A stretch of 64,000 nt of DNA. It comes from Bacilli bacterium (GTDB lineage: Bacteria > Bacillota_I > Bacilli_A > RF39 > UBA660). Shown in pieces: positions 27,874 through 43,405 of this stretch. The notes below the pieces were generated by a model, which made no database searches, was not told where the DNA came from, and worked only from the letters and a program-made list of their open reading frames with translations. The position numbers and the translations under genes are program-made. Within the stretch, counting starts at the first letter, position 1; every line of letters begins with the position of its first letter. The stretch spans positions 132,911 to 196,910 of the forward strand of contig JAFQCG010000003.1 of NCBI GenBank assembly GCA_017416535.1, given 5' to 3'.

Positions 27874-29100
27874 ATGGAACATAATAGAAAACAAAAATTA
27901 TTAATGATTATTGCATTGGTAGTAGGAATTGCATCTTTATCTGTAGGTTTCGCAGCATTTTCAACAACACTAAATATTTCATCAAGTGCAAGTGTAACAC
28001 CAAGTAGTGCGGATTTTGCAGTAAAGTTTTCAACTAGTCAAACTAGTTTAGTAACAGATGCAGTAGTACATTCAAGTAAAACAACCGGTATAACTACAAC
28101 AAATGGAACAATAGTAAATAGTGTTTCACCAACTCTTTCAAATTTATCAGCAAGTTTTACTAGTCCAGGACAATATGTAGAATATACTGTATATGCAAGA
28201 AATGAAGGAGAGTATACTGCTTACTTAAATAATATTAATTATATAGGAGATAAAACATGTATTACATCATCTGGTACAACAGAATCTTTAGTTCAAAGTG
28301 CATGTAATTCAATAAATATAACAGTAACAATTGAAAATACAACATATGATGATACAACACCAATTTCTTCTCATGCCTTAGCAAAAGGAGCAAGTGAAAC
28401 AATAAAGGTAAGATTAGAATATGCAGAAAATGGAACAGCAGTAGATGGATCATTTAAAATAACATTCCCAAGCATTTCACTAGTTTACTCAACAATAGAT
28501 AATTCATCAATGGATGGAAAAGTAGTAAGAGTAGTAAGTGGAGATATAAATACACCTGGTAGTGTAGTTGCGATAGGAAATGAGCAATTCTATGTATTTG
28601 ACAAAGAAAATGGAAATGTAAAATTACTTTCTATGTATAATCTAAGAGTTGGAAACAGTGTAGACGAAGAATGGAACGTAACACCACTAACAAACACAAC
28701 TGGAATACAAGATAGTGAAGCAAGAGGATATGTAGATGGAGAATTTCCATTTATAGGAACAACAGCATTTTCAAATACAAATTCAACTTACTCGGGAAGT
28801 ATAGTAGAGGGATACGTAAATAACTATAAAACATATTTAACAAACATGGGAGTAGATATCTCATCAGCAAGATTAATAAAAAAGGCAGAACTTGAAAAAT
28901 TAGGATGCAACGAAGACGATTATAGTTGCAGTGACGCTCCAAGTTGGGTTTACTCAACTTCATATTGGTCGGGGTCGGCCCGTGATGCTGACTTTGTGTG
29001 GAGTGTGATTAGTTATGCGGGCTTTGTCGACAGCGACTCTAACCGTGATGACGACGTCGGCGTGCGTCCAGTTATAGAAATCTCTGAATCTATTTTCTAG
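27874..29100 (+). CDS. secreted protein with a TasA/SipW-cognate-like signal peptide and a C-terminal DUF1566 (Lcl C-terminal)-like module
   Basis: N-terminus LSVGFAAFSTTLNISS. C-terminus YWSGSARDADFVWSVISYAGFVD ... GVRPVIEI. The C-terminal 130 nt are markedly GC-rich. Confidence 0.45.
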   Translation: MEHNRKQKLLMIIALVVGIASLSVGFAAFSTTLNISSSASVTPSSADFAVKFSTSQTSLVTDAVVHSSKTTGITTTNGTIVNSVSPTLSNLSASFTSPGQYVEYTVYARNEGEYTAYLNNINYIGDKTCITSSGTTESLVQSACNSINITVTIENTTYDDTTPISSHALAKGASETIKVRLEYAENGTAVDGSFKITFPSISLVYSTIDNSSMDGKVVRVVSGDINTPGSVVAIGNEQFYVFDKENGNVKLLSMYNLRVGNSVDEEWNVTPLTNTTGIQDSEARGYVDGEFPFIGTTAFSNTNSTYSGSIVEGYVNNYKTYLTNMGVDISSARLIKKAELEKLGCNEDDYSCSDAPSWVYSTSYWSGSARDADFVWSVISYAGFVDSDSNRDDDVGVRPVIEISESIF

Positions 29101-31719: not shown

Positions 31720-32160
31720 ATGATAAAAATATGCTTTGTCTGCCTAGGAAATATTTGTCGTTCTCCTATGGCAGAATATATAATGAAAAAGAAACTAAAA
31801 GATCTAAATCTAGAAAATGAATATCACATAGTATCACGTGCAACATCATATGAAGAACAAGGAAATGATATATATCCTCCTGCTAAAAGAAAACTAACAG
31901 AAGCAAACATTCCATTTAGTAATCATACCGCCACAAGATTAGAAAAAGATGACTATGATAAATATGATTGTTTCATTTGTATGGAACAAAGAAATATAAC
32001 AAATACTCTACGTATATTTGAAAGTGATCCAAGTAACAAAATATTTACTTTATTAGATAAAGATATTGCTGATCCTTGGTATACAGGAAACTTTGATGAT
32101 ACATATAATGATTTAGACTATGGTTTAGATAATCTTATAAAAGAACTTGAAAAGAAGTAG
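31720..32160 (+). CDS. low-molecular-weight protein tyrosine phosphatase
   Basis: CLGNICRSPMAE (CX5R P-loop) near the N-terminus, DPWY motif near the C-terminus, 146 aa. Confidence 0.8.
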   Translation: MIKICFVCLGNICRSPMAEYIMKKKLKDLNLENEYHIVSRATSYEEQGNDIYPPAKRKLTEANIPFSNHTATRLEKDDYDKYDCFICMEQRNITNTLRIFESDPSNKIFTLLDKDIADPWYTGNFDDTYNDLDYGLDNLIKELEKK

Positions 32161-32178
32161 AAATACTTCTTTTTTGTT
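32148..32178 (+). terminator. Rho-independent terminator
   Basis: agaagta-gaaa-tacttct plus T6. Confidence 0.55.
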
Positions 32179-32196
32179 GCTATATAAGGGTAAAAC

Positions 32197-32225
32197 TTGC
32201 ATTTTTACCCATTTTATGATATAAT
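32197..32225 (+). promoter_or_regulatory. sigma-A promoter of the two-gene operon
   Basis: TTGCAT, 17-nt spacer, tga TATAAT (extended -10). RBS aaaggggga before the ATG at 32255. Confidence 0.55.
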
Positions 32226-32254
32226 ATCCCCACATATTGAAAAGGGGGATAAAA

Positions 32255-33229
32255 ATGGAGTTTATTGTACTAGATTTAACAACAGCAACCGAAGAACAAA
32301 TAAAAGCTGCAATTGACTGTAACAATAGAACATCTCGTTTAATGCAATCAGAAATCGATAAATTACGTCGTGTAGCTGAAACTGTCAAAAAAAGTAAAAA
32401 ACCAATTATTATTCAAGTAGAACCTCAAGAAGAAAAGAAAGAAACAGAAATAATTGATGAAGACTTTGAAAATGAGGTTGAATATTATTTATCACAACTA
32501 AAAGAATTAAAAAATTCTAATATTGATGATGAGTTTGAAACATCAATACCATCTCGTATGCACTATCAGTATGAAAGAATCTTGACTCGTTTAAAACTAG
32601 AATCAATAAGACTTATTAAAGAAATTAAAGATTTGTTAGCTGAGGAAGGCTTATCTTTAGAAGATATGAATGCTTTTAAAGAAGAATTAGATTTAGAACT
32701 AAAGAAAATCGAACTAATTAATAAAGCATTAGAACCAGTAAAAGAAGAAGAGCAAGCCTCTACTAAAAAAGATAATAAATTAATATTTGTACCAACATCA
32801 GGTGGAGATATAAGAGTACTAGATGAAATTGATTCTATACCATACGAATATTACGATCGTTTCCTAGGACTATTCCAATCAATAAAAGATGGTACATTTA
32901 AAAATGTTCAAAGATTCACAGGTAATAATGAACTTAATGGTTTATGTGAAGTAAAAGACTTTAAAGTACGTGTAATTTTTGTAAGATTAACAAAAGATTC
33001 TTATGCAATAATATCAGCGTTTACTAAAAAGTCTGATAATGATAAAGCTTATCGTGCTGCAGTAATAAAAAAATATAATGACTTCCAGATAGCAGAATCA
33101 TCATTAAGAAAAAATATACAAAATGAAGAATTCTTAGAACTACATAAGACATATGAAACAGAATTATTTGAAAAGTTATCACCTACAACTAAAACACCTG
33201 TTTTAAAGAAGAAAGGTGGTGAAGTATAA
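32255..33229 (+). CDS. coiled-coil/acidic N-terminal region fused to a C-terminal Gp49/HigB-like (RelE/ParE superfamily) toxin domain
   Basis: C-terminal TFKNVQRFTGNNELNGLCEVKDFKVRVIFVRLTKDSYAIISAFTKKSDNDKAYRAAVIKKYNDF matches the Gp49 pattern L.G..LWELR...YRV.Y.....IVLLHAF.KK. TAATG overlap with the next gene. Confidence 0.45.
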   Translation: MEFIVLDLTTATEEQIKAAIDCNNRTSRLMQSEIDKLRRVAETVKKSKKPIIIQVEPQEEKKETEIIDEDFENEVEYYLSQLKELKNSNIDDEFETSIPSRMHYQYERILTRLKLESIRLIKEIKDLLAEEGLSLEDMNAFKEELDLELKKIELINKALEPVKEEEQASTKKDNKLIFVPTSGGDIRVLDEIDSIPYEYYDRFLGLFQSIKDGTFKNVQRFTGNNELNGLCEVKDFKVRVIFVRLTKDSYAIISAFTKKSDNDKAYRAAVIKKYNDFQIAESSLRKNIQNEEFLELHKTYETELFEKLSPTTKTPVLKKKGGEV

Positions 33230-35133
33230 TGATAAATATCTTAAGAATGATAAATAAAGAAAAAATAAGAATTGATCAAGAACTATTAGAAGAAGATGAA
33301 AGATTTGAATTTTATCAAGAATTTTTCAAAAAAAATAAAACATCAACATTAACTGATGTAATAAATTTAAATCATTCTGATTTAGCACTTGCAATTATCA
33401 TTAATATGGACCCAGAACTTTCGGTTGAAGAAGTTAAAGAAGTAGTTTATGGTAACAGAGATATTTTTGAAAATTTAAACTTCGATTCTATAAGTGAACT
33501 AGTAAGATTAATAGATGGTCTAGCTAATGACCCAGAACTTTATTGTGATATTAAAAAAGCTGCTATAACTAAAGCGGATAAGAAATTTACAGCTAGATTC
33601 AAAAAAGAAAGTCAAATGGCGAGTATGATTCGTATTCTTACAGATTCAATGGACACAACTCCAGAAATGTTCTTTGATTTTGTAGATATGTTTATTGAAC
33701 ACAGTGAAGGATTTGTAATTGCCTTATCAACAGTTGCAACATTAAAAGATATCAAAGAAGAAAAAGAATTCCATTATCAAATGATTCAAGATATCTGTGA
33801 AGAAGAAGGTGCAAAAGTTAAACGAAAAGTTCAAGATAAATGGGTATCAGAAATGGTAAGAGATGATTATAAAATTGCTAATTTATTAAAACCAGTAAAT
33901 GATGCAAGAAATGAATATCATCATCTAGATCAAGAACAAAGAAATAGAAAAAGAAATTTATCTAAAACAAAAGTTGTTTATGAATCATTAGAAACAAACC
34001 TTTATAAAGCCATTCAATCAGGGGAAATAAGAAATGTTGAAACATTACTAAAAAAAGTACCTAATGATGAAATTAGAATTGCTATATTAAAACTTGTATA
34101 TACACACAATCAAAAAATATACAAAAACTTATCTGAAGAATATAAAATATTAGCTGCTAATGATGCTTCTCACTATCGAGTTCTACTTGCAAAATATGGT
34201 ATATCTCCAGAAGATTATGAAGTAGGAACTGTAATGGAAAATTCAATTGAAGATTTAGAAAATATATTAAAATTACTAACTAAACTTTCAATAACTAATC
34301 CAACAGAAATTCTTAGTATTATTCAAAATACAAATTTAGAAACAATTACTAATATTCAAGGATTAACTGAACGAGGTATAATAACATCTCAATTATTAGT
34401 AGAACATCAAAGTATTCTAAATCCAAATTCAAAAGAATATGAAGACTTCATGAGAAATTTAAGTTTAATTAATAAAAAGAAATTAAATCCACATCATTTT
34501 ACAACAACAGAAGATGTATTAATAACAAATCATGAAGTATTAACAAATAGTTTAAGCACACTAGAAGATTACGACTTATTATCTAATATAAAATCAAAAA
34601 TGAATTTAACTTTCTTAAAAAACATAGATTTAAAAGAATCAATTGATCTATTATTAGAATTAGGTTATGAATCAAATTTAGAAGAATGTTTAGACTTATT
34701 AAACTATAAAGATAAATTTGATAGATTAAAAGTCTTAAAAGAATTAAATATACCTATAGGAAGCACACAAGAATTAATAGGAATATTAACAACAGATAAA
34801 TTCTATGTACCAGATAAAGATATATCTAAGTATGTATATAATGCATCTAACTATAATTTGCCTAGAGGAATTGTAGAAGTAGAAGAACCAAAGAAAAAAG
34901 TATCAGATGTATCAAGGTTATCAGAATTTTCAAATACATCTCGTACATATAGTTTTGATGGAGTATTAATTTCCAAAAATAGAGTACATAGAAATTTATC
35001 TCATATACTAGCAACAGGAAAACCAACAGATAGATTAGTATATGCAATATTAAAAGGAGCAACATTAAATGATGAAGAAGTATCAAAAGTAAAAACATCA
35101 CTTGCTTCACAAAAACAAATAATAAAAAAATAA
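33229..35133 (+). CDS. large (634 aa) uncharacterised, predicted all-alpha protein, translationally coupled to the upstream gene
   Basis: Start ATG shares a nucleotide with the upstream TAA. No recognisable catalytic or HTH motif. Confidence 0.45.
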   Translation: MINILRMINKEKIRIDQELLEEDERFEFYQEFFKKNKTSTLTDVINLNHSDLALAIIINMDPELSVEEVKEVVYGNRDIFENLNFDSISELVRLIDGLANDPELYCDIKKAAITKADKKFTARFKKESQMASMIRILTDSMDTTPEMFFDFVDMFIEHSEGFVIALSTVATLKDIKEEKEFHYQMIQDICEEEGAKVKRKVQDKWVSEMVRDDYKIANLLKPVNDARNEYHHLDQEQRNRKRNLSKTKVVYESLETNLYKAIQSGEIRNVETLLKKVPNDEIRIAILKLVYTHNQKIYKNLSEEYKILAANDASHYRVLLAKYGISPEDYEVGTVMENSIEDLENILKLLTKLSITNPTEILSIIQNTNLETITNIQGLTERGIITSQLLVEHQSILNPNSKEYEDFMRNLSLINKKKLNPHHFTTTEDVLITNHEVLTNSLSTLEDYDLLSNIKSKMNLTFLKNIDLKESIDLLLELGYESNLEECLDLLNYKDKFDRLKVLKELNIPIGSTQELIGILTTDKFYVPDKDISKYVYNASNYNLPRGIVEVEEPKKKVSDVSRLSEFSNTSRTYSFDGVLISKNRVHRNLSHILATGKPTDRLVYAILKGATLNDEEVSKVKTSLASQKQIIKK

Positions 35134-35203
35134 TCCAAGTATCTTAAGAATAGAAAAGAAGTCTGTCATGTCACACACCGGACTTCTTTTCGTTTATAAA
35201 ACG

Positions 35204-35232
35204 TTGACAAATAAGTCTCTACGTGCTATAAT
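35204..35232 (+). promoter_or_regulatory. sigma-A promoter of the rplU-prp-rpmA operon
   Basis: TTGACA (35204-35209), 17-nt spacer, TATAAT (35227-35232). Confidence 0.55.
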
Positions 35233-35238
35233 CTAACT

Positions 35239-35334
35239 GTTTGACGCCTCATGCTCAAACCGCATTGAACAGGTAAAAACGTGTAATACGTACCTCGAGA
35301 GCGAGTCTTAAGTTTAAAAAAGGAGGTATATTTA
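35239..35334 (+). promoter_or_regulatory. structured 5' leader of rplU (candidate L21-leader autoregulatory element)
   Basis: Approximately 95-nt untranslated leader with several short stems (ctgtt/aacag, ggtacgt/acgtacc). L21 leader elements are known in low-GC Gram-positives. Confidence 0.3.
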
Positions 35335-35637
35335 ATGAACGCTGTAGTTAAAGTTGGTGGAAAGCAATATTATGTTACTGAAGGTTCTGAAATTTTTGTT
35401 GAAAAACTAAATGCAGAAGCTGGTGACAAAGTTAGCTTCGATCAAGTATTAATGCTTGATAGTAAAGTAGGAAGTCCTTATCTTACTAATGTTACTGTTG
35501 AAGGTGAAGTAATCAAAAACGGTAAACAAAAGAAAATTAGAGTTTTCAAATATAAAAGTAAAGATAGATCTAACCGTAAGACTCAAGGACATAGACAACC
35601 TTATACAAAAATCAAAATTACTAAAATTAATGGTTAA
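35335..35637 (+). CDS. rplU: 50S ribosomal protein L21
   Basis: MNAVVKVGGKQYYVTEGSEI ... canonical L21, 100 aa. Confidence 0.9.
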   Translation: MNAVVKVGGKQYYVTEGSEIFVEKLNAEAGDKVSFDQVLMLDSKVGSPYLTNVTVEGEVIKNGKQKKIRVFKYKSKDRSNRKTQGHRQPYTKIKITKING

Positions 35638-35640
35638 TTT

Positions 35641-35943
35641 ATGATTAAAGTTAAAGTAGAAAAAGAAAATTCTATTTATAAAAAAATATCTATTCTAGGT
35701 CATGCTATGTATGATGAATATGGAAAAGATATTGTATGTAGTGCTGCTAGCAGTATTGCAACAACAACAATAAATGGAATCTTAACTTTAGATGAAGGTA
35801 GTCTAAGTTACCAAGTTAATAAGGAAGGTCTTATAATTGAGAATATTTCAGATAATGAAACAACTCAAAAATTACTTGGAAACATGGTTAATCTTTTAGA
35901 ACAGTTGGAAGAACAATATCCAACAAATATTGAAGTAAAGTAA
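35641..35943 (+). CDS. prp: ribosomal-processing cysteine protease Prp
   Basis: Located between rplU and rpm[19 protein letters not shown]is/Cys dyad signature. Confidence 0.8.
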
Positions 35944-35954
35944 GGAGGAGAATT

Positions 35955-36245
35955 ATGAAACAATTATTATTAGATATTCAATTATTTGCTCACCATAAAG
36001 GGCAAGGATCAACATCTAATGGTCGTGATTCTGCAGGACGTAGACTTGGAGCTAAAGCAGCTGACGGTGAATTCATAACAGCTGGTTCTATTATATATCG
36101 TCAACGTGGAACAAAAATTTTCCCAGGAACTAACGTTCGTCGTGGAAATGATGATACTCTATATTCTACAGTTGATGGAATCGTTAAGTTTGAACACTTA
36201 GGAAGAACTAAGAAACAAGCTTCAGTATATCCAGTAGGAGAATAA
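35955..36245 (+). CDS. rpmA: 50S ribosomal protein L27 with N-terminal propeptide ([16 protein letters not shown])
   Basis: [23 protein letters not shown] ... canonical L27 after an 11-residue extension. Confidence 0.9.
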
Positions 36246-36253
36246 TAGAAGTA

Positions 36254-36278
36254 AAGAGCCATTATGGCTCTTTTTTTA
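36254..36278 (+). terminator. Rho-independent terminator
   Basis: aaagagccattatggctcttt plus T7. Confidence 0.65.
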
Positions 36279-36357
36279 ACCAATAATAGCAAGTGATTAT
36301 CTAGACAAAAAAATATATATTTGTTATACTAAAATCACTTTGAAAGGGGATGAAATA

Positions 36358-37632
36358 ATGTTTGTAGATGAGGTTGAAATTAAAGTTGAAGCCGGAGATG
36401 GTGGAGACGGATGTACTGCCTTTCGTCGTGAAAAATATATCGAAATGGGAGGACCATTCGGAGGTAATGGTGGACGTGGAGCAGACATAATCTTCAAAGT
36501 AGATGAAGGATTACACACATTATTAGATTTACGTTATCAAAAAACAATTAAAGGACAAAAAGGTGAAAATGGACGTGGTAAAAACCAACATGGTGCCGGA
36601 GCTGAGAACTTAATTGTTAAAGTACCACAAGGTACAGTAGTAACTGATTTAGATACAGGATTTATTATTGCCGATTTATCAAAAAAAGACCAACAAGAAG
36701 TAATTGCAAAAGGTGGACGTGGAGGCAGAGGAAATACTGCCTTCAAAACACAAACTAATACAGCTCCAGACTACTCTGAAAAAGGAGAAGAAGGAGAAAA
36801 GAAAACATTAAAAGTAGAAGTTAAAATGTTAGCTGATGTTGGATTAGTAGGATTACCAAGTGTTGGAAAATCAACAATAATTTCAATGATTTCAAGATCT
36901 AAACCCAAAATAGCCGCTTATCACTTTACAACACTTACTCCAAACTTAGGTGTAGTACGAGCAAGTGAAGGAAGAAGTTACGTAGTAGCAGATCTTCCAG
37001 GTCTAATTGAAGGAGCATCACAAGGAGAAGGATTAGGAGATAAATTCTTACGCCACATTGAAAGAACAAGAGTAATAGCTCATGTAATTGATATGAGTGG
37101 AAGCGAAATGAGAGATCCATATGAAGATTATCTTTTAATTAATAAAGAATTAAAAGAATTCAATGAAAAATTACTAGAAAAACCACAAATAGTAATTGCT
37201 AATAAAATGGATATTCCAGGAGCAAAAGAAAATTTAGAAGAATTTAAAAAGAAAGTTGACGTAGAAATATATGAAATTTCAGCAGCAACAAATCAAGGAT
37301 TAGATAAGGTAATAAATAGATTAGCTGACTTATTAGATGAAATTCCATCTAATCCACTATACGATGAAAGTCAAATTGAAAGTCATGTTCTATATAAATT
37401 CAAGAAAGAAGAACCATTTACTATTGGAAGAGATGACGATGGTACATGGGTAATTGAAGGAAAAGAAGTTGAAAGAATATTCAAAATGACAAAATTCTCA
37501 AGTGAAGAAGCAATTTATCGTTTCTCTAAAAAACTACGTCGTATGGGAATTGATGATAAATTACAAGAATTAGGAGCAGAAGAAGGAGACCAAGTTAGAA
37601 TTCTAGACTTCTACTTCGATTATAAAGACTAA
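36358..37632 (+). CDS. obg: GTPase Obg
   Basis: MFVDEVEIKVEAGDGGDGC ... Obg fold, G motifs GLPSVGKST, C-terminal TGS-like domain. Start at 36358 after RBS aaagggga. Confidence 0.9.
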   Translation: MFVDEVEIKVEAGDGGDGCTAFRREKYIEMGGPFGGNGGRGADIIFKVDEGLHTLLDLRYQKTIKGQKGENGRGKNQHGAGAENLIVKVPQGTVVTDLDTGFIIADLSKKDQQEVIAKGGRGGRGNTAFKTQTNTAPDYSEKGEEGEKKTLKVEVKMLADVGLVGLPSVGKSTIISMISRSKPKIAAYHFTTLTPNLGVVRASEGRSYVVADLPGLIEGASQGEGLGDKFLRHIERTRVIAHVIDMSGSEMRDPYEDYLLINKELKEFNEKLLEKPQIVIANKMDIPGAKENLEEFKKKVDVEIYEISAATNQGLDKVINRLADLLDEIPSNPLYDESQIESHVLYKFKKEEPFTIGRDDDGTWVIEGKEVERIFKMTKFSSEEAIYRFSKKLRRMGIDDKLQELGAEEGDQVRILDFYFDYKD

Positions 37633-37651
37633 TTATTAGGTGGGGTTCAAT

Positions 37652-38338
37652 ATGACATTAACAGAATTAAAAACAAAAACAGAAAATTTAACAAATAGAA
37701 TTGATGGAATTAATACATGGATAAAAAGTAATCCAGAAGTAACAGAACCAAATGTGTACGAGATAATGGATTGCAATGTTCAATATGCAGAATTAGTGGC
37801 AGAATATGTAACTTACTATAATGAAAGTGGTTGGCCATTTATTGAAGAAGATATGATGCTTAAAAAAAATTTGCCAAGAAGTGCCAGAACAACCGATTTA
37901 CCATTTCTACATCCTGAACTTGCAAATTGCTTTTTAGGGCTATGTACAATGGAAACTCTAAGAGAATTTCCAATGCATCCATTTATAAAAACACCTGAAG
38001 CATATGATATGTATGCAACACTTAGAATGAGACAATTATGTGGAGCATACACTTTAGGACCAACAGAAGAAGATAGACGAATAAAAAGAGAATTAATTAC
38101 TAAATCTATGAGTGTTTTATACTATATCTGGCAAGTAAAACAACAAGAACCAGATTATGAGTACGACAACATATCTGAATTTATCGCATTAAAAGATATG
38201 GCTAGTTTATATGAAGCATCAGAAGAACCATGTCAATATAAAGTACAAATAGATAATATACTATCAAAGATAGAAGAAAGTTATAAATATAAAGAAACTA
38301 AAACAGGACAAAAAGCACCACAAAAGAAAAAAGACTAA
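37652..38338 (+). CDS. hypothetical protein
   Basis: 228 aa from the ATG at 37652 (RBS ttaggtgggg). No recognisable domain. Confidence 0.4.
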   Translation: MTLTELKTKTENLTNRIDGINTWIKSNPEVTEPNVYEIMDCNVQYAELVAEYVTYYNESGWPFIEEDMMLKKNLPRSARTTDLPFLHPELANCFLGLCTMETLREFPMHPFIKTPEAYDMYATLRMRQLCGAYTLGPTEEDRRIKRELITKSMSVLYYIWQVKQQEPDYEYDNISEFIALKDMASLYEASEEPCQYKVQIDNILSKIEESYKYKETKTGQKAPQKKKD

Positions 38339-38376
38339 TATTTGTGTGCTATTAAGGAAAGGAGCATATATCAAAT

Positions 38377-39069
38377 ATGCCAAAAATTACAAAAGAAGAA
38401 TATGCTCGTAGAGCCTTAAAATTTGTGGAAGCACACAAAGAAAGCTATACACAAAGAGAATATGAGTATATTCGTGGAAATATCACTTGGGGAATGGATA
38501 AACTGTTTGTATCTGATTTATTAAGACAAGTATATGATGAAGCTGGAATTACAGATCCAAAAACAAATATGTACGAAGGATTTGTAAAATTATTAGAAGA
38601 AAACTTTGACATAGAAAGAGATATTATTGAAATAGGTGGAGGTGTTGTTCCTTCTCTCGCAAAAAAAATAGCTCTACGTCAAAAAAAAGGAACTATTACA
38701 GTTTACGATCCAAGATTAATAACAGATATAAATCACCCAGATAATTTAATTCTAAAAAAAGAAAAATTTAACAAAGATACACCAATAGGTAATGCTCAAA
38801 TGATTATTGGTTTTATGCCTTGTGAAGCAACTAATCTACTTATTGAAACAGCATGTGCTAATAATGTTGATTTCATGATAGCATTATGTGAAGGTGGAAC
38901 ACGAGAAGGTTATGGTTGGTTAGAAGAAGATGATGAATGGATAGGTTTTGTAAAATACTGTGCAAGTCGTGGTATAGAAGATGCAAATCTAGGTACGTTA
39001 GAAGAAAGATCTTTAGAACAATATGATAATCCATATCCAGTTATATACAATAAACGAAGAAAATCTTAA
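38377..39069 (+). CDS. hypothetical protein
   Basis: 230 aa, RBS aaggaaaggag; no recognisable domain. Confidence 0.4.
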   Translation: MPKITKEEYARRALKFVEAHKESYTQREYEYIRGNITWGMDKLFVSDLLRQVYDEAGITDPKTNMYEGFVKLLEENFDIERDIIEIGGGVVPSLAKKIALRQKKGTITVYDPRLITDINHPDNLILKKEKFNKDTPIGNAQMIIGFMPCEATNLLIETACANNVDFMIALCEGGTREGYGWLEEDDEWIGFVKYCASRGIEDANLGTLEERSLEQYDNPYPVIYNKRRKS

Positions 39070-39148
39070 TTATTTAAGATTTTTTTGTTTTCTATAAAAA
39101 AGTTATGTTATAATAAACTTAAGATAGAATAATATGAGGTGAAGCAAT

Positions 39149-39958
39149 ATGAAGAGTCCTGAATTTTTAAGTTCAAAAGGAGTAGACTTACAAAAGAGTT
39201 TAGAACTATTTGGAAATATAGAAACATATAATGATACAGTTGGAGAGTTTATTGTAGGAACTGCAGGTAAAGCAAATAAGTTAAAAGAATATATGACTGC
39301 AAAGGATTTAACTAACTATGCAATATATGTTCATTCATTAAAAAGTGATGCAAAGTATTTTGGATTTACCAAACTATCAGAAAAAGCATACGAACATGAA
39401 ATGAAGAGTAAAGCAGGAGACTTATATTATATATATGAAAACTTTAATGATTTAGTAGCTGCTGTAAACGAAACTATTGCAATTGTTAAAGAATATTTAT
39501 CAGATGCTCCTGAACAACCAGCAGAAAAACCTGCAGAAGTTGTTCCAGAAGAAGAAACTGATGCTTATACAGAAAAAACAATCTTAGTAGTAGATGACTC
39601 AAATATTATTAGAAACTTTACTAAAAGAATCTTTGATGGTAAATATGGAGTAGGTACTGCTAAAAATGGTCAAGAAGCAATTGATATAATTAATGCTAAT
39701 AAAGATAATGAAAATATAATTGCTATTCTACTAGATTTAAATATGCCTAAAGTAGATGGATTTGCAGTATTAAAATATATGGAAGAAAATGATTTCTTTG
39801 AACAAATACCAGTATCAATTATTTCAGGAGATTCATCAAAAGAAACAATTGATAAAGCATATCAATATCCAATTGTTGATATGTTAGGAAAACCGTTCAA
39901 TGAAAACGATGTAAAAAGAGTAGTAGAAAAAACTATTATGTATAAGGAATTATCATAA
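39149..39958 (+). CDS. Hpt-domain / response-regulator receiver fusion protein (phosphorelay component with no output domain)
   Basis: Hpt: YVHSLKSDAKYFGF with the phospho-His. Pro/Glu linker. REC: ILVVDDSNIIRN ... LLDLNMPKVDG ... K. Confidence 0.6.
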   Translation: MKSPEFLSSKGVDLQKSLELFGNIETYNDTVGEFIVGTAGKANKLKEYMTAKDLTNYAIYVHSLKSDAKYFGFTKLSEKAYEHEMKSKAGDLYYIYENFNDLVAAVNETIAIVKEYLSDAPEQPAEKPAEVVPEEETDAYTEKTILVVDDSNIIRNFTKRIFDGKYGVGTAKNGQEAIDIINANKDNENIIAILLDLNMPKVDGFAVLKYMEENDFFEQIPVSIISGDSSKETIDKAYQYPIVDMLGKPFNENDVKRVVEKTIMYKELS

Positions 39959-39960
39959 TA

Positions 39961-39988
39961 AAAGAGACTGATTATTCAGTCTCTTTTT
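39961..39988. terminator. bidirectional Rho-independent terminator
   Basis: aaagagactgattattcagtctcttt plus T-run; serves convergent genes. Confidence 0.6.
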
Positions 39989-40361
39989 TACTTTTCTTTT
40001 TATTTTTTAATTCTTCGCGTCTTTCTTCGTCTTCTTTTTCAACTACAAGTTTTAATGTATCTCCAACTTTTAAATCTTTAACAGTTTCTCTAGGTACAAA
40101 ATATATATTAGAAACATTCTTTTTTCTTCTAACTTTCTTTTCAGTTCCAAGACATTCAATTAAATATAAAATCTTTTCATCGCTATCAGTAAGAATAACA
40201 TCTATCTTTTCAAATAAGAAATTAGTATTTGCAGACTTTTTATTTGGAAATCTAACTCCATATGTTAATGGACCAAGAACAAATTTAAGTCCTTTTAATC
40301 TTTCCCAAAATGTATTTGCTTCTACTAATTTAACTTTTCTATTTTTAACTTTTATATACAT
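39972..40361 (-). CDS. DUF192 domain protein
   Basis: 129 aa. ANTFWERLKGLKF ... matches the DUF192 (COG1430) N-terminal pattern. Lys/Glu-rich tail. Confidence 0.45.
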   Translation of the reverse strand: MYIKVKNRKVKLVEANTFWERLKGLKFVLGPLTYGVRFPNKKSANTNFLFEKIDVILTDSDEKILYLIECLGTEKKVRRKKNVSNIYFVPRETVKDLKVGDTLKLVVEKEDEERREELKNKKKSKKETE

Positions 40362-40454
40362 AAAATCACCACTTACAGATTATATTATAACATAAATTTC
40401 TTTTACAATTAATAAAAGTATGGTATCATAAAGAAGAAAAGAGGAGGTATTATT

Positions 40455-41177
40455 ATGAGTGGACATTCAAAATGGGCTACAATTCACAGAAAAAAAGGTT
40501 TATTAGATGCAGCGCGTGGTAAAGTATTCCAAAAACTTGCAAAAGAAATTATGGTTGCTGCAAAAGGTGGAAGTCCCGATCCACAGACTAATGCCGCATT
40601 AAGATTAGCAGTTGATAAGGCAAAAGCACAAAATATGCCAAAAGAAAATATTCAAAAAGCAATTGAAAAAGCAACAGGAACAACAGACGGAGCAAACTAT
40701 GAAAATGTACGTTATGAAGGTTATGGTCCAAATGGAGTTGCTTTCATGGTTGATTGCTTAACTGATAATAGAAATAGAACAGCATCACAAGTAAGAAGTT
40801 CATTTACTAAAGCTGGAGGTAACTTAGGAACAGATGGTTCAGTAAGTTATATGTTTGAACGTCGTGGTTCAATTGTTATTCCAGGTGAATATGATGAAGA
40901 AGAAATGATGATGACTTCCCTTGATGCAGGAGCATTAGATTTCGAAGCAGTAGATAATACATATATAATTACAACTGCTCAAGATACTTTTACAGCAGTA
41001 AAAGAAGCATTAGAAAATGCTAATGTAAAAGAATTCCTAGAATGTGAATTAACATATATTCCAAATATGGAAGTAGAACTAGATGAAGAATCAAGTGAAA
41101 AAGTACATAACTTAGTTGAAACACTTGAAGACTTAGATGATGTACAAGATGTATATTATAATTTAAAAGAAGATTAA
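40455..41177 (+). CDS. YebC/PmpR family DNA-binding transcriptional regulator
   Basis: MSGHSKWATIHRKKG ... canonical YebC N-terminus, 240 aa. Confidence 0.9.
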   Translation: MSGHSKWATIHRKKGLLDAARGKVFQKLAKEIMVAAKGGSPDPQTNAALRLAVDKAKAQNMPKENIQKAIEKATGTTDGANYENVRYEGYGPNGVAFMVDCLTDNRNRTASQVRSSFTKAGGNLGTDGSVSYMFERRGSIVIPGEYDEEEMMMTSLDAGALDFEAVDNTYIITTAQDTFTAVKEALENANVKEFLECELTYIPNMEVELDEESSEKVHNLVETLEDLDDVQDVYYNLKED

Positions 41178-41187
41178 GAGGTATAAT

Positions 41188-41709
41188 ATGGCTAACTTAC
41201 GTCAAATAAATAATGAATTAAAAACATACATTAATGAAGCAACATTTATTTCAAATAAGTGTCGTAATAAATTACTAAAATATTTAGGTGAAACATTCAA
41301 CGTAGAGTTACCACTTGAGAATTTTGCTAAAATAGATGCTGAAATAACAGAAGAAGGAAATATCATAATGAGAGGTGATGAATATAAAACATCATCTCCA
41401 GTAAAAACAGAAGAAGAATTAGAAGAAAAATATAATGTATTTAAAGAAAAAGCAGAAATTCTTCTAAAGAAAAAAGAAGTAAATTATTACACAAAAAATA
41501 ATATAAATAATACATTAAATATATTTATAGTAATAGCACTTTCAATTATCTATGTAATAGTGTTAATCTTTGCAATAAGAGAAGTGTTAAGTCTAAATTT
41601 ATTTACTGCAAGTATATTATTTGCAATTCTTTCTTCAAGCTTAATTCCAAATATAAAAGCAAGATTTGAACAAGCAAAAAATTTCCTAAAGAGGAAATTT
41701 AAAAAATAG
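41188..41709 (+). CDS. hypothetical protein with C-terminal TM helices
   Basis: 173 aa, two C-terminal hydrophobic segments. Confidence 0.35.
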   Translation: MANLRQINNELKTYINEATFISNKCRNKLLKYLGETFNVELPLENFAKIDAEITEEGNIIMRGDEYKTSSPVKTEEELEEKYNVFKEKAEILLKKKEVNYYTKNNINNTLNIFIVIALSIIYVIVLIFAIREVLSLNLFTASILFAILSSSLIPNIKARFEQAKNFLKRKFKK

Positions 41710-41825
41710 TTTTATAACTATTTTTTTATTTGTTTATTTTGACAAACAAGTGTTCGTGTTGTATAATTAATATTAGTTTGAAAGTATATAATATTTAGTT
41801 TATAATGAATATGGAGTGATAATAA

Positions 41826-42389
41826 ATGTATGACTATATAAAAGGTACAATTACATGTTTAAAAAATAATGCAATCGTTTTAGATAATAATGGTATTGGA
41901 TATTTAATATATGTATCAAATCCATATTCTTTTGAAGTTGGAAAAGAATATAAGGTATTTGTATATCAAAAAATAGCTGAAGATGAAAATAGTTTATATG
42001 GTTTTAAGACAATAGAAGAAAAAGATTTATTCTTAAAATTAATTAGTGTAAAAGGTTTAGGTTGTAAAATGGCCTTACCAATCTTAGCAGTAGGATCAAT
42101 AAATGGAATAATGGATGCCATTGAAAGAGAAAATGTTTTATATCTAAAGAAATTCCCAAAGATAGGAGATAAACTTGCAAAACAAATAGTTTTAGACTTA
42201 AAAGGAAAACTTGAATTTATAGGTATCGGAATTTCTGAAGATGAAGTTAATACAGAAAATGAACTTAAAGAAGTATTAATTGGATTAGGATATAAAGAAA
42301 AAGAATTAAAACCAGTTTTAGCTAAAGTTGATACATCATTAGCAATAGAAGACCAAGTAAAAGATGCATTAAAATTATTATTAAGATAA
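41826..42389 (+). CDS. ruvA: Holliday junction branch migration protein RuvA
   Basis: MYDYIKGTI ... HhH motifs (GLGCKMA), upstream of ruvB. Confidence 0.85.
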   Translation: MYDYIKGTITCLKNNAIVLDNNGIGYLIYVSNPYSFEVGKEYKVFVYQKIAEDENSLYGFKTIEEKDLFLKLISVKGLGCKMALPILAVGSINGIMDAIERENVLYLKKFPKIGDKLAKQIVLDLKGKLEFIGIGISEDEVNTENELKEVLIGLGYKEKELKPVLAKVDTSLAIEDQVKDALKLLLR

Positions 42390-42406
42390 ATTAAGGAGGA
42401 CATATA

Positions 42407-43405
42407 ATGGAAAATGAAAGTGTTATAAAAACATACAATTTATTAGATGATAATACAATTGATAATACTATTCGTCCAGAAAGTATTGAAGAATATGTAG
42501 GACAAACAGACGTAAAAGAAAATATTAAAGTCTTTGTTGAAGCTGCTAAAATGCGTAATGAACCATTAGATCATGTTCTATTATACGGTCCACCAGGATT
42601 AGGTAAAACAACATTGGCCTTTATTATAGCAAATGAACTAGGTACACATATCAAAACAGCAAGCGGACCAAGTATTGAAAAAACCGGAGACTTAGCAGCA
42701 ATACTTTCATCCCTTGAACCAGGAGATGTATTATTTATTGATGAAATACATCGTATGCCAAGATATATTGAAGAAATTCTATATCCAGCTATGGAAGATT
42801 TTTCATTAGACATAATTGTAGGTAGTGAAGGAAATAGTAGAAACATTAAAATTGACTTACCTCCCTTTACACTAGTAGGAGCAACAACAAGAGCAGGAGA
42901 TTTATCTTCGCCACTAAGAGATCGTTTTGGAATAACTTCAAAATTACAATTTTATACAATTGAAGAGCTAAGAGATATTATAAAAAGAACAGCTAGAGTA
43001 CTAGATATTGAAATTGAAGATGATGCTGCAGTAGAACTTGCTAAAAGAAGTAGAGGCACACCAAGAATTGCAAACAGATTATTTAAAAGAGTTAGAGACT
43101 TTGCACAAGTTAAAGGAAATGGTATAATAAACATCGCAATTACTGAAGAAGCACTTAATCGTTTAAAAGTAGATAGTATTGGATTAGATAATACTGACCA
43201 TGATTTATTATTAGCAATCATTAATAAATTTAATGGAGGCCCAGTAGGTGTAGAAGCAATTGCCTCATCAATTGGAGAAGAAGTAACGACAATTGAAGAT
43301 GTATATGAACCATATTTATTACAAATGGGATTATTAAAAAGAACATCACGTGGTCGTATAGCAACAGATAAAGCATACGAAGTATTAGGAATAAACAAGA
43401 AATAA
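42407..43405 (+). CDS. ruvB: Holliday junction ATP-dependent DNA helicase RuvB
   Basis: Walker [12 protein letters not shown], Walker B LFIDEIHR, 332 aa. Confidence 0.9.

Follow-up and report, generated by a model that had tools for sequence, protein, structure and literature searches.

Two-gene operon upstream of rplU

The DNA examined here is a window of 64,000 nucleotides from contig JAFQCG010000003.1 of the Bacilli bacterium assembly GCA_017416535.1, and the subject of this report is a pair of adjacent genes in it, referred to as gene 1 and gene 2. Gene 1 encodes a protein with a predicted RelE/HigB-type toxin domain, and gene 2 encodes a large helical protein. Two long open reading frames (ORFs) on the same strand were found at the locus. 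They meet at a TAATG junction, in which the stop codon of gene 1 (TAA, 33227-33229) and the initiation codon of gene 2 (ATG, 33229-33231) share 1 base. The ORF listing gives a TTG at 32237, further upstream, as an alternative start of gene 1. The ATG at 32255 is the most likely initiation codon because the homologues all begin with MEF or MEY at this position. Based on their length in DNA of 26% GC, the numbers of homologues (more than 160 and more than 600, respectively), and a ratio of nonsynonymous to synonymous substitution rates (dN/dS) of approximately 0.12, the two ORFs are not chance features.

The promoter of gene 1, read from the sequence, consists of a −35 sequence, a spacer, and an extended −10 sequence (Table 1). 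The extended −10 sequence, TGaTATAAT, is perfect, and the −35 sequence matches at only 3 of 6 positions; the latter explains why a consensus scan missed this promoter. An alignment demonstrated that the promoter elements are invariant across 7 orthologous upstream regions. In addition, 18 of 20 homologous cassettes from different lineages carried an equivalent TGnTAnAAT and a G-rich Shine-Dalgarno (SD) sequence 36 to 53 nucleotides 5′ of gene 1, and the second copies of tandem duplicates keep both elements despite unrelated upstream DNA. The G run of the gene 1 SD sequence is kept in nearly all cassettes. The SD sequence of gene 2 lies within the final codons of gene 1, which specify K-G-G-E. 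This C-terminal KGGE is kept in the close clade, and its conservation may mirror an RNA signal, since AAAGGTGGTGA doubles as the SD sequence of gene 2.

Short inverted repeats overlap the cassette promoter at positions 32188-32210 and 32221-32238 of the window and in the upstream regions of the relatives L027, L001, L003, L010, and L011. The repeat across the −35 sequence was GGGTAAAA-N7-TTTTACCC in the window and AGGAAAAA-N6-TTTTTCCT in L027. The repeat across the −10 sequence and the likely transcription start was AATAT-N6-ATATT in the window, ATATGT-CCC-ACATAT in L001, and TAATAT-GCG-ATATTA in L003. These repeats could be operators for autoregulation; the evidence is weak because the DNA is very AT-rich and some lineages are without such repeats. 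A predicted RNA hairpin that would sequester the SD sequence was set aside: its 5′ arm falls within the promoter and thus precedes the probable start of transcription.

The pair is bracketed by hairpins with U tracts. The upstream hairpin, which belongs to a low-molecular-weight (LMW) phosphatase gene (PF01451 in a 94%-identical orthologue), had a folding energy of −8.9 kcal/mol (z −2.6) in RNAfold, and an equivalent hairpin is present 5′ of the cassette in relatives. The hairpin downstream of gene 2 reached −18.1 kcal/mol (z −4.3), and none of 200 shuffled sequences folded as well. Further downstream, the rplU-prp-rpmA-obg genes have their own promoter, which matches the consensus at 12 of 12 positions. 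Since both hairpins bracket the pair and rplU has a promoter of its own, gene 1 and gene 2 form a separate transcription unit. No Rfam match was found inside the operon. A full-length match to the L21 leader (RF00559) was detected at 35248-35318 (+), between a perfect TTGACA-17-TGnTATAAT promoter (35204-35232) and the start of rplU (35335), at a sub-threshold 28.6 bits compared with a gathering score of 36 (E 0.007). A first-pass annotation of this DNA had described a two-gene operon with a TAATG overlap, a 634-amino-acid second product, a TTGCAT-17-TGnTATAAT promoter, flanking terminators, and a position between a phosphatase gene and the rplU operon, and each of these features was found as described.

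Table 1. Coordinates of the two genes, their domains, and the associated signals in the window
Feature	Position	Strand	Description
Gene 1	32255..33229	+	324 amino acids; acidic helical N-terminal region, predicted RelE/HigB (Gp49-type) domain, C-terminal helices
Gene 2	33229..35133	+	634 amino acids; predicted all-alpha
N-terminal region of gene 1	32255..32764	+	residues 1-170; acidic (isoelectric point 4.65), helical; from AlphaFold2 model, conservation, and charge
RelE/HigB-fold domain of gene 1	32774..33124	+	residues ~174-290; predicted beta1, two helices, four-stranded sheet, C-terminal helix
Promoter of gene 1	32197..32225	+	−35 TTGCAT (32197-32202), 17-nucleotide spacer, extended −10 TGATATAAT (32217-32225); read from sequence
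SD sequence of gene 1	32242..32248	+	AAGGGGG, 6 nucleotides 5′ of ATG
SD sequence of gene 2	33212..33222	+	AAAGGTGGTGA, within final gene 1 codons (K-G-G-E)
Terminator hairpin of upstream phosphatase gene	32150..32175	+	10-bp A/U-rich stem, GAAA loop, U run
Terminator hairpin 3′ of gene 2	35148..35198	+	RNAfold prediction

RelE/HigB-type domain and N-terminal region of gene 1

A confident AlphaFold2 model of the gene 1 product was built from the family alignment (predicted local distance difference test score, pLDDT, 83; predicted template modelling score, pTM, 0.69). The model contains helices at residues 13-45, 69-97, and 106-159, a beta-alpha-alpha-beta4 unit at residues 175-257, and helices at residues 263-308. 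When the model was compared with the PDB by Foldseek, each of the top 11 matches was a toxin entry, either HigB or RelE (probability 0.96-1.0, E 1e-3 to 0.1, target template modelling score 0.51-0.75), and the ten best had probabilities of 0.98-1.0. The best match was Streptococcus pneumoniae HigB (6AF3/6AF4; E 1e-3, probability 1.0), which was followed by RelE1 and RelE2 of Mycobacterium tuberculosis and RelE of Methanocaldococcus jannaschii; Cami1, a CARF-RelE protein, ranked lower. As modelled, the domain has the alpha/beta fold of the RelE type (RelE/ParE superfamily, BECR fold).

At the sequence level, residues 190-269 of gene 1 matched positions 1-81 of the 90 positions of the Pfam Gp49 profile (PF05973) with an E value of 5.8e-4 and a score of 20.3 bits, which is below the gathering threshold of 23.9 bits. 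For the two proteins together, Pfam, NCBIfam, PADLOC, and PHROGs yielded no match other than this one. The same profile matched 22 of 36 diverse gene 1 homologues at E ≤ 0.01 (best E 1e-5), and a precomputed PF05973 match was available for three homologues. Both the Pfam comparison and the structural comparison thus agree with the Gp49/HigB identity that the first-pass annotation had given to this domain. It had, however, been placed in the last ~80 residues, and the Gp49-like segment lies at residues ~175-270, past which the protein runs for ~55 residues more as two helices and a disordered tail. Profiles of gene 1 and of the domain alone gave only chance-level matches to PDB sequences (such matches from the gene 1, domain, and gene 2 profiles were, for example, mS26, ZapB, haemoglobin, and Gogy), and single-sequence searches with two homologues did not reach HigB. 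When homologues were sought with the domain profile, nothing was recovered but fragments and split copies from this same family, and canonical Gp49 proteins were not among them.

In pneumococcal HigB, mutagenesis showed that R68, R73, and F90 are important for activity and toxicity and that K92 has a lesser role, and E66 is also listed as a putative active-site residue (PMC7984235). By residue numbering, E232, K234, R239, F256, and K258 of gene 1 have the same spacing (+2, +5, +17, and +2) as E66, R68, R73, F90, and K92 of that protein. These positions (K or R at 234) are invariant or conservatively substituted across the family, even in members that are only 26-35% identical. Gene 1 therefore appears to keep the E/R/R/F/K set of HigB. 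In addition, the domain, which is basic (isoelectric point 9.3), is the most conserved block of the protein. Because the putatively equivalent residues are invariant or conservatively substituted and the domain is the best conserved part of gene 1, a HigB-like active surface seems to be under selection.

The same two observations bear on a different explanation, namely that the RelE-like domain lacks catalytic activity and serves in structure or binding, and that the function of the pair is unrelated to RNA cleavage. The sub-threshold Gp49 match of the window's gene 1, the absence of a sequence match to solved RelE or HigB structures, and the long coiled-coil-like helices, which suggest a scaffold, are consistent with it. 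Neither the invariance of the HigB-equivalent positions in distant members nor the high conservation of the domain would be expected of such a module, and we regard this explanation as improbable.

The N-terminal region of gene 1 had been described in the first-pass annotation as acidic and coiled-coil; by charge and model, residues 1-170 are acidic and helical. It contains a disordered acidic linker at residues 47-64 and the conserved motifs IDxDFExEVEYY and LPSRKHYQYERIL, and no family match was obtained for it in Pfam, NCBIfam, PADLOC, PHROGs, or a profile search of PDB sequences. With an acidic N-terminal region and a basic domain, gene 1 is charged like an antitoxin-toxin fusion. The relatives L016 (5553-6525) and L017 (5386-6402) each have a gene 1 copy that is broken into two ORFs beside an intact gene 2. 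These split copies could be either real decay on the toxin side or an assembly frameshift.

The gene 2 partner and the inheritance of the pair

The AlphaFold2 model of the gene 2 product (pLDDT 87) is confident and nearly all helical, with a small beta hairpin close to the C-terminus. Along the protein, the N-terminal third is variable (residues ~80-240), the helical-repeat region is conserved (~280-545), and the C-terminal domain, which contains the beta hairpin, is basic (546-634; isoelectric point 9.9); residues 280-620 are well conserved. No match to gene 2 was found in Pfam, NCBIfam, PADLOC, or PHROGs, or among PDB sequences by profile, and Pfam searches with 10 distant relatives also gave no match. 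Neither a P-loop/NTPase motif nor another known sensor motif was found. The only recurring resemblance was a weak one to helical repeats of the mTERF type (3M66, Foldseek E 0.44, probability 0.85). Membership of gene 2 in the mTERF family was rejected, because none of 10 members gave a PF02536 match at E ≤ 10 and no internal repeat was detectable when the protein was compared with itself by hhalign; the resemblance is kept as a weak analogy. The long N-terminal extension of gene 1 and an all-alpha partner of 634 amino acids with no helix-turn-helix (HTH) domain and no family match make up the atypical architecture that the first-pass annotation had pointed out.

The co-occurrence of the two genes, which that annotation had asked to be examined across genomes, was strict. 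At every locus with enough sequence (more than 20 pairs), gene 2 was directly preceded by gene 1, either overlapping it or 1 to 2 nucleotides apart. The two genes have congruent trees and correlated pairwise identities (r = 0.94). Gene 2 evolves faster than gene 1, and antitoxins usually evolve faster than toxins. Duplication involves the complete cassette, including its promoter, and both gene trees reveal an old tandem duplication that gave rise to A and B types of paralogue. Both types are kept in L001, B in the window, and A in L009, L010, and L012, and the loss of every copy was never seen.

A word-index search found 168 homologues of gene 1, all of 320-336 amino acids, and 45 homologues of gene 2. 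A full HMMER scan for gene 2 gave at least 630 cluster representatives at 50% identity, 297 of them at E ≤ 1e-30 and nearly all of 580-690 amino acids, and a metagenome scan added few further loci. All family members come from uncultured gut Bacilli, as metagenomes or metagenome-assembled genomes under the labels Bacilli bacterium, Tenericutes bacterium, or uncultured Mycoplasma sp., and no named protein turned up when the clusters were looked up. In the clade of the window, the pair is always located between the LMW phosphatase gene and rplU-prp-rpmA-obg. For a sample chosen independently of the pair, loci were collected through an identical L21 protein; all ten carried the pair at this position, and two of them carried two tandem cassettes. 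Distant members were located between tgt and rnc-yebC-mutL or after nusB-xseA-xseB. No integrase, transposase, or phage genes were found near the pair. The pair is a vertically inherited and seemingly universal cassette of this lineage and not an accessory element.

Between L001 and the window, L21, Obg, and AddA are 100%, 97%, and 85% identical, respectively, whereas gene 1 is 68% and gene 2 is 54% identical; this gap is due in part to paralogy. In unsaturated, whole-gene comparisons of gene 1 and gene 2, the dN/dS values were 0.118 and 0.115 where the identity was 97%, and 0.118 and 0.157 where it was 85-88%. These low values indicate that both genes are functional and subject to purifying selection. 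Values of 0.15-0.33 were obtained for the oxidoreductase and phosphatase genes nearby, and 0.04 for Obg. The pair evolves fast, yet no faster than other unannotated genes nearby, and whole-gene values of 0.12-0.16 gave no support to an arms race under positive selection.

The first-pass annotation had regarded the pair as a candidate toxin-immunity or phage-defence module, but the pair does not behave like an accessory module of this kind. It had named as contrary signs that the pair be core and syntenic in all relatives and that gene 2 match a known housekeeping family; the former was found in all relatives sampled, whereas gene 2 matched no such family. As a dedicated anti-phage system, the pair would act by abortive infection: gene 2 would be the sensor, with its variable N-terminal third in that role, and gene 1 the RelE-type effector released upon infection. 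The toxin-type effector domain, the fast-evolving segment of gene 2 (~80-240), the deep tandem paralogues, and the presence of other variable genes at the locus in relatives are in keeping with such a role. Precedents also exist: fused or multidomain RelE/ParE-superfamily toxins and the Gp49-type HigB of toxin-antitoxin-chaperone (TAC) modules are tied to defence (PMC11980606), and Cami1 is a regulated multidomain RelE. However, neither gene matched PADLOC-DB 2.0 at E ≤ 1, and the variable neighbours had no PADLOC match either. The pair shows no presence/absence polymorphism and occurs in every relative sampled, it has no mobile-element genes nearby, and it was not found in IMG/VR, INPHARED phages, or PLSDB plasmids. 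Furthermore, its dN/dS is well below 1 and similar to that of neighbouring non-ribosomal genes, and gene 2 is without a recognizable sensor motif. A dedicated role in abortive infection is thus unlikely.

Several other observations were made around the locus. In relatives, the interval between the conserved flanks is also occupied by other lineage-variable genes, whose products have 419, 380, 676, 306, and 310 amino acids (L001, 6640-7899 (−); L025, 5636-6778; L016, 4200-5342; L033, 2345-4375; L003, 5663-7850); none of them had a Pfam or PADLOC match. Two unannotated genes without a Pfam or PADLOC match lie 3′ of obg in the window, at 37640-38338 (232 amino acids) and 38377-39069 (230 amino acids). 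The former is missing from the close relatives L024 and L033, and the latter is conserved down to ~36-54% identity. When the window at ~31720-43405 was compared with L024, the synonymous divergence was 0.02-0.13 from the phosphatase gene to rpmA and 0.24-0.39 for most genes from obg on, with yebC (0.11) as an exception. This step suggests a recombination boundary near obg. At 27874-29100 (+), the window encodes a 408-amino-acid protein with an N-terminal hydrophobic anchor, a Ser/Thr-rich region, and no family match, which is present in L030 and L031 and absent in L032.

Possible function and relation to known systems

We favour, with a probability of about 0.45, the interpretation that the pair is a chromosomally fixed, regulated ribonuclease module derived from HigBA of the Gp49 family, a family that has the toxin-first gene order (PMC11980606). 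The gene order, the charge pattern of gene 1, the faster evolution of the partner, and the duplication of the cassette as a unit all fit this origin. The RelE/HigB-fold domain of gene 1 would be an endoribonuclease; its most probable target is mRNA in the A site of the ribosome, and the cleavage would arrest translation. The region to which this basic, putative nuclease domain is joined is helical, acidic, and partly disordered, with a charge like that of an antitoxin, and translational coupling would ensure that gene 1 is made alongside its obligate, co-evolving helical partner. Gene 2, possibly together with the N-terminal region of gene 1, may bind the nuclease in a physical complex and restrain or direct its activity, until a signal releases it.

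Several points weigh against a HigBA-derived module. Gene 2 has no HTH domain, resembles no antitoxin or immunity family, and is approximately six times larger than any canonical HigA. The Gp49 match of the window's gene 1 falls short of the gathering threshold, the domain profile found no HigB or RelE chain among PDB sequences, and the residues of gene 1 and HigB were matched by their numbering and not by an inspected alignment. In addition, the pair is universal and syntenic at the L21-anchored loci, its distant members also stand amid housekeeping genes, it was not found in the viral, phage, and plasmid collections, and its dN/dS resembles that of ordinary genes. Such a core, syntenic, and non-mobile distribution with an ordinary dN/dS also fits a housekeeping role.

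In a housekeeping role, the pair would form an RNA-processing or ribosome-associated complex, in which the RelE-fold domain, once domesticated, works as an endoribonuclease that is constitutive and non-toxic or as an A-site- or RNA-binding module, and gene 2 serves as an mTERF-like helical-repeat adaptor that targets gene 1 to RNA or the ribosome. This explanation accounts for the universality of the pair and for the constant retention of at least one paralogous copy despite the differential loss of A and B. Purifying selection at a dN/dS of ~0.12, the conserved, constitutive-looking promoter and strong SD sequence, and the basic C-terminal domain of gene 2 also fit. Translation or RNA genes are neighbours in three contexts (rplU-rpmA-obg; tgt and rnc; nusB), but the argument from neighbourhood is weak because translation genes are abundant in small genomes. 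On the other hand, true housekeeping neighbours change much more slowly than the pair, as seen in Obg and L21 compared with gene 2 (54% identity), and the mTERF resemblance is faint in structure and absent in sequence. We know of no precedent for a housekeeping protein of the Gp49 type. A housekeeping complex is the main alternative to the HigBA-derived module, although a rather doubtful one. The same degree of doubt applies to the broader view that a RelE/HigB-fold nuclease was domesticated, with a new 634-amino-acid helical-repeat partner, into a core factor on which an entire lineage of uncultured gut Bacilli (formerly ‘Tenericutes’-like) depends, and to the proposal that its A and B paralogues are mutually substitutable within an RNA-processing or ribosome-associated complex.

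RelE/HigB toxins are known from textbooks as small, patchily distributed, mobile addiction or defence genes. The pair resembles the Gp49-type HigBA systems (S. pneumoniae HigBA, 6AF3/6AF4; Tad-Ata) in its predicted RelE/ParE-superfamily fold, which like that of pneumococcal HigB has a C-terminal helix after the sheet, in its order of a toxin-type gene followed by a translationally coupled partner, and in its Pfam Gp49 matches, which range from sub-threshold to threshold. Unlike these systems, the domain is embedded in a 324-amino-acid protein with a 170-residue acidic helical N-terminal region, and the partner has 634 residues and no HTH/XRE domain. Judged by sequence, the pair is thus not a canonical type II HigBA, which consists of a ~100-amino-acid toxin and a small XRE antitoxin. 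In addition, it keeps a single, fixed chromosomal locus and occurs universally in the clade, and it is neither patchy nor linked to mobile elements in the manner of an accessory module.

Multidomain RelE/ParE toxins surveyed by Gerdes in 2025 include gp49-HTH fusions, PtuXYZ, and ToxM, and many multidomain proteins were left out of that survey (PMC11980606). Gene 1 resembles these toxins and Cami1 (8PHB) in that a putative nuclease domain of RelE fold is joined to a further region with a regulatory or accessory role. In contrast, the pair has no HTH, CARF, transmembrane, or PtuA-like partner and no CRISPR or defence-island context, and the N-terminal region of gene 1 and gene 2 match no architecture described there (PMC11980606). 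Gene 2 also differs from mTERF proteins (MTERF3, 3M66; MTERF4, 4FZV/7O9K), since it has no sequence signal of the family and no internal repeats, is much larger, and carries extra domains; its scores against them are in the range of generic helical-bundle matches.

A chromosomally fixed type II toxin-antitoxin locus is known in mazEF (ndoAI/ndoA), which in Bacillus and Staphylococcus precedes the sigB operon. The pair, as a predicted RNase module of toxin type, is like mazEF in its core and syntenic status and in its vertical inheritance within a large clade of Bacillota. Unlike the pair, mazEF belongs to a different toxin superfamily, has a small canonical antitoxin, and has no tandem paralogues. 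The departure from the textbook picture lies in a RelE/HigB-type fold that is placed in a larger protein, locked to a large partner, and fixed at one locus throughout a big uncultured clade with reduced genomes. Should gene 2 be a new kind of antitoxin or regulator, the range of proteins able to control RelE-type nucleases would widen; should the pair act as a housekeeping RNase complex, it would exemplify toxin domestication. In either case, two unannotated protein families are defined for common gut bacteria, and the pair can be tested by heterologous expression. Compared with the known systems, the fold and the gene order are familiar, and what is new here is the type of partner for a RelE-fold nuclease, the two unannotated families, and the unusual degree of fixation.

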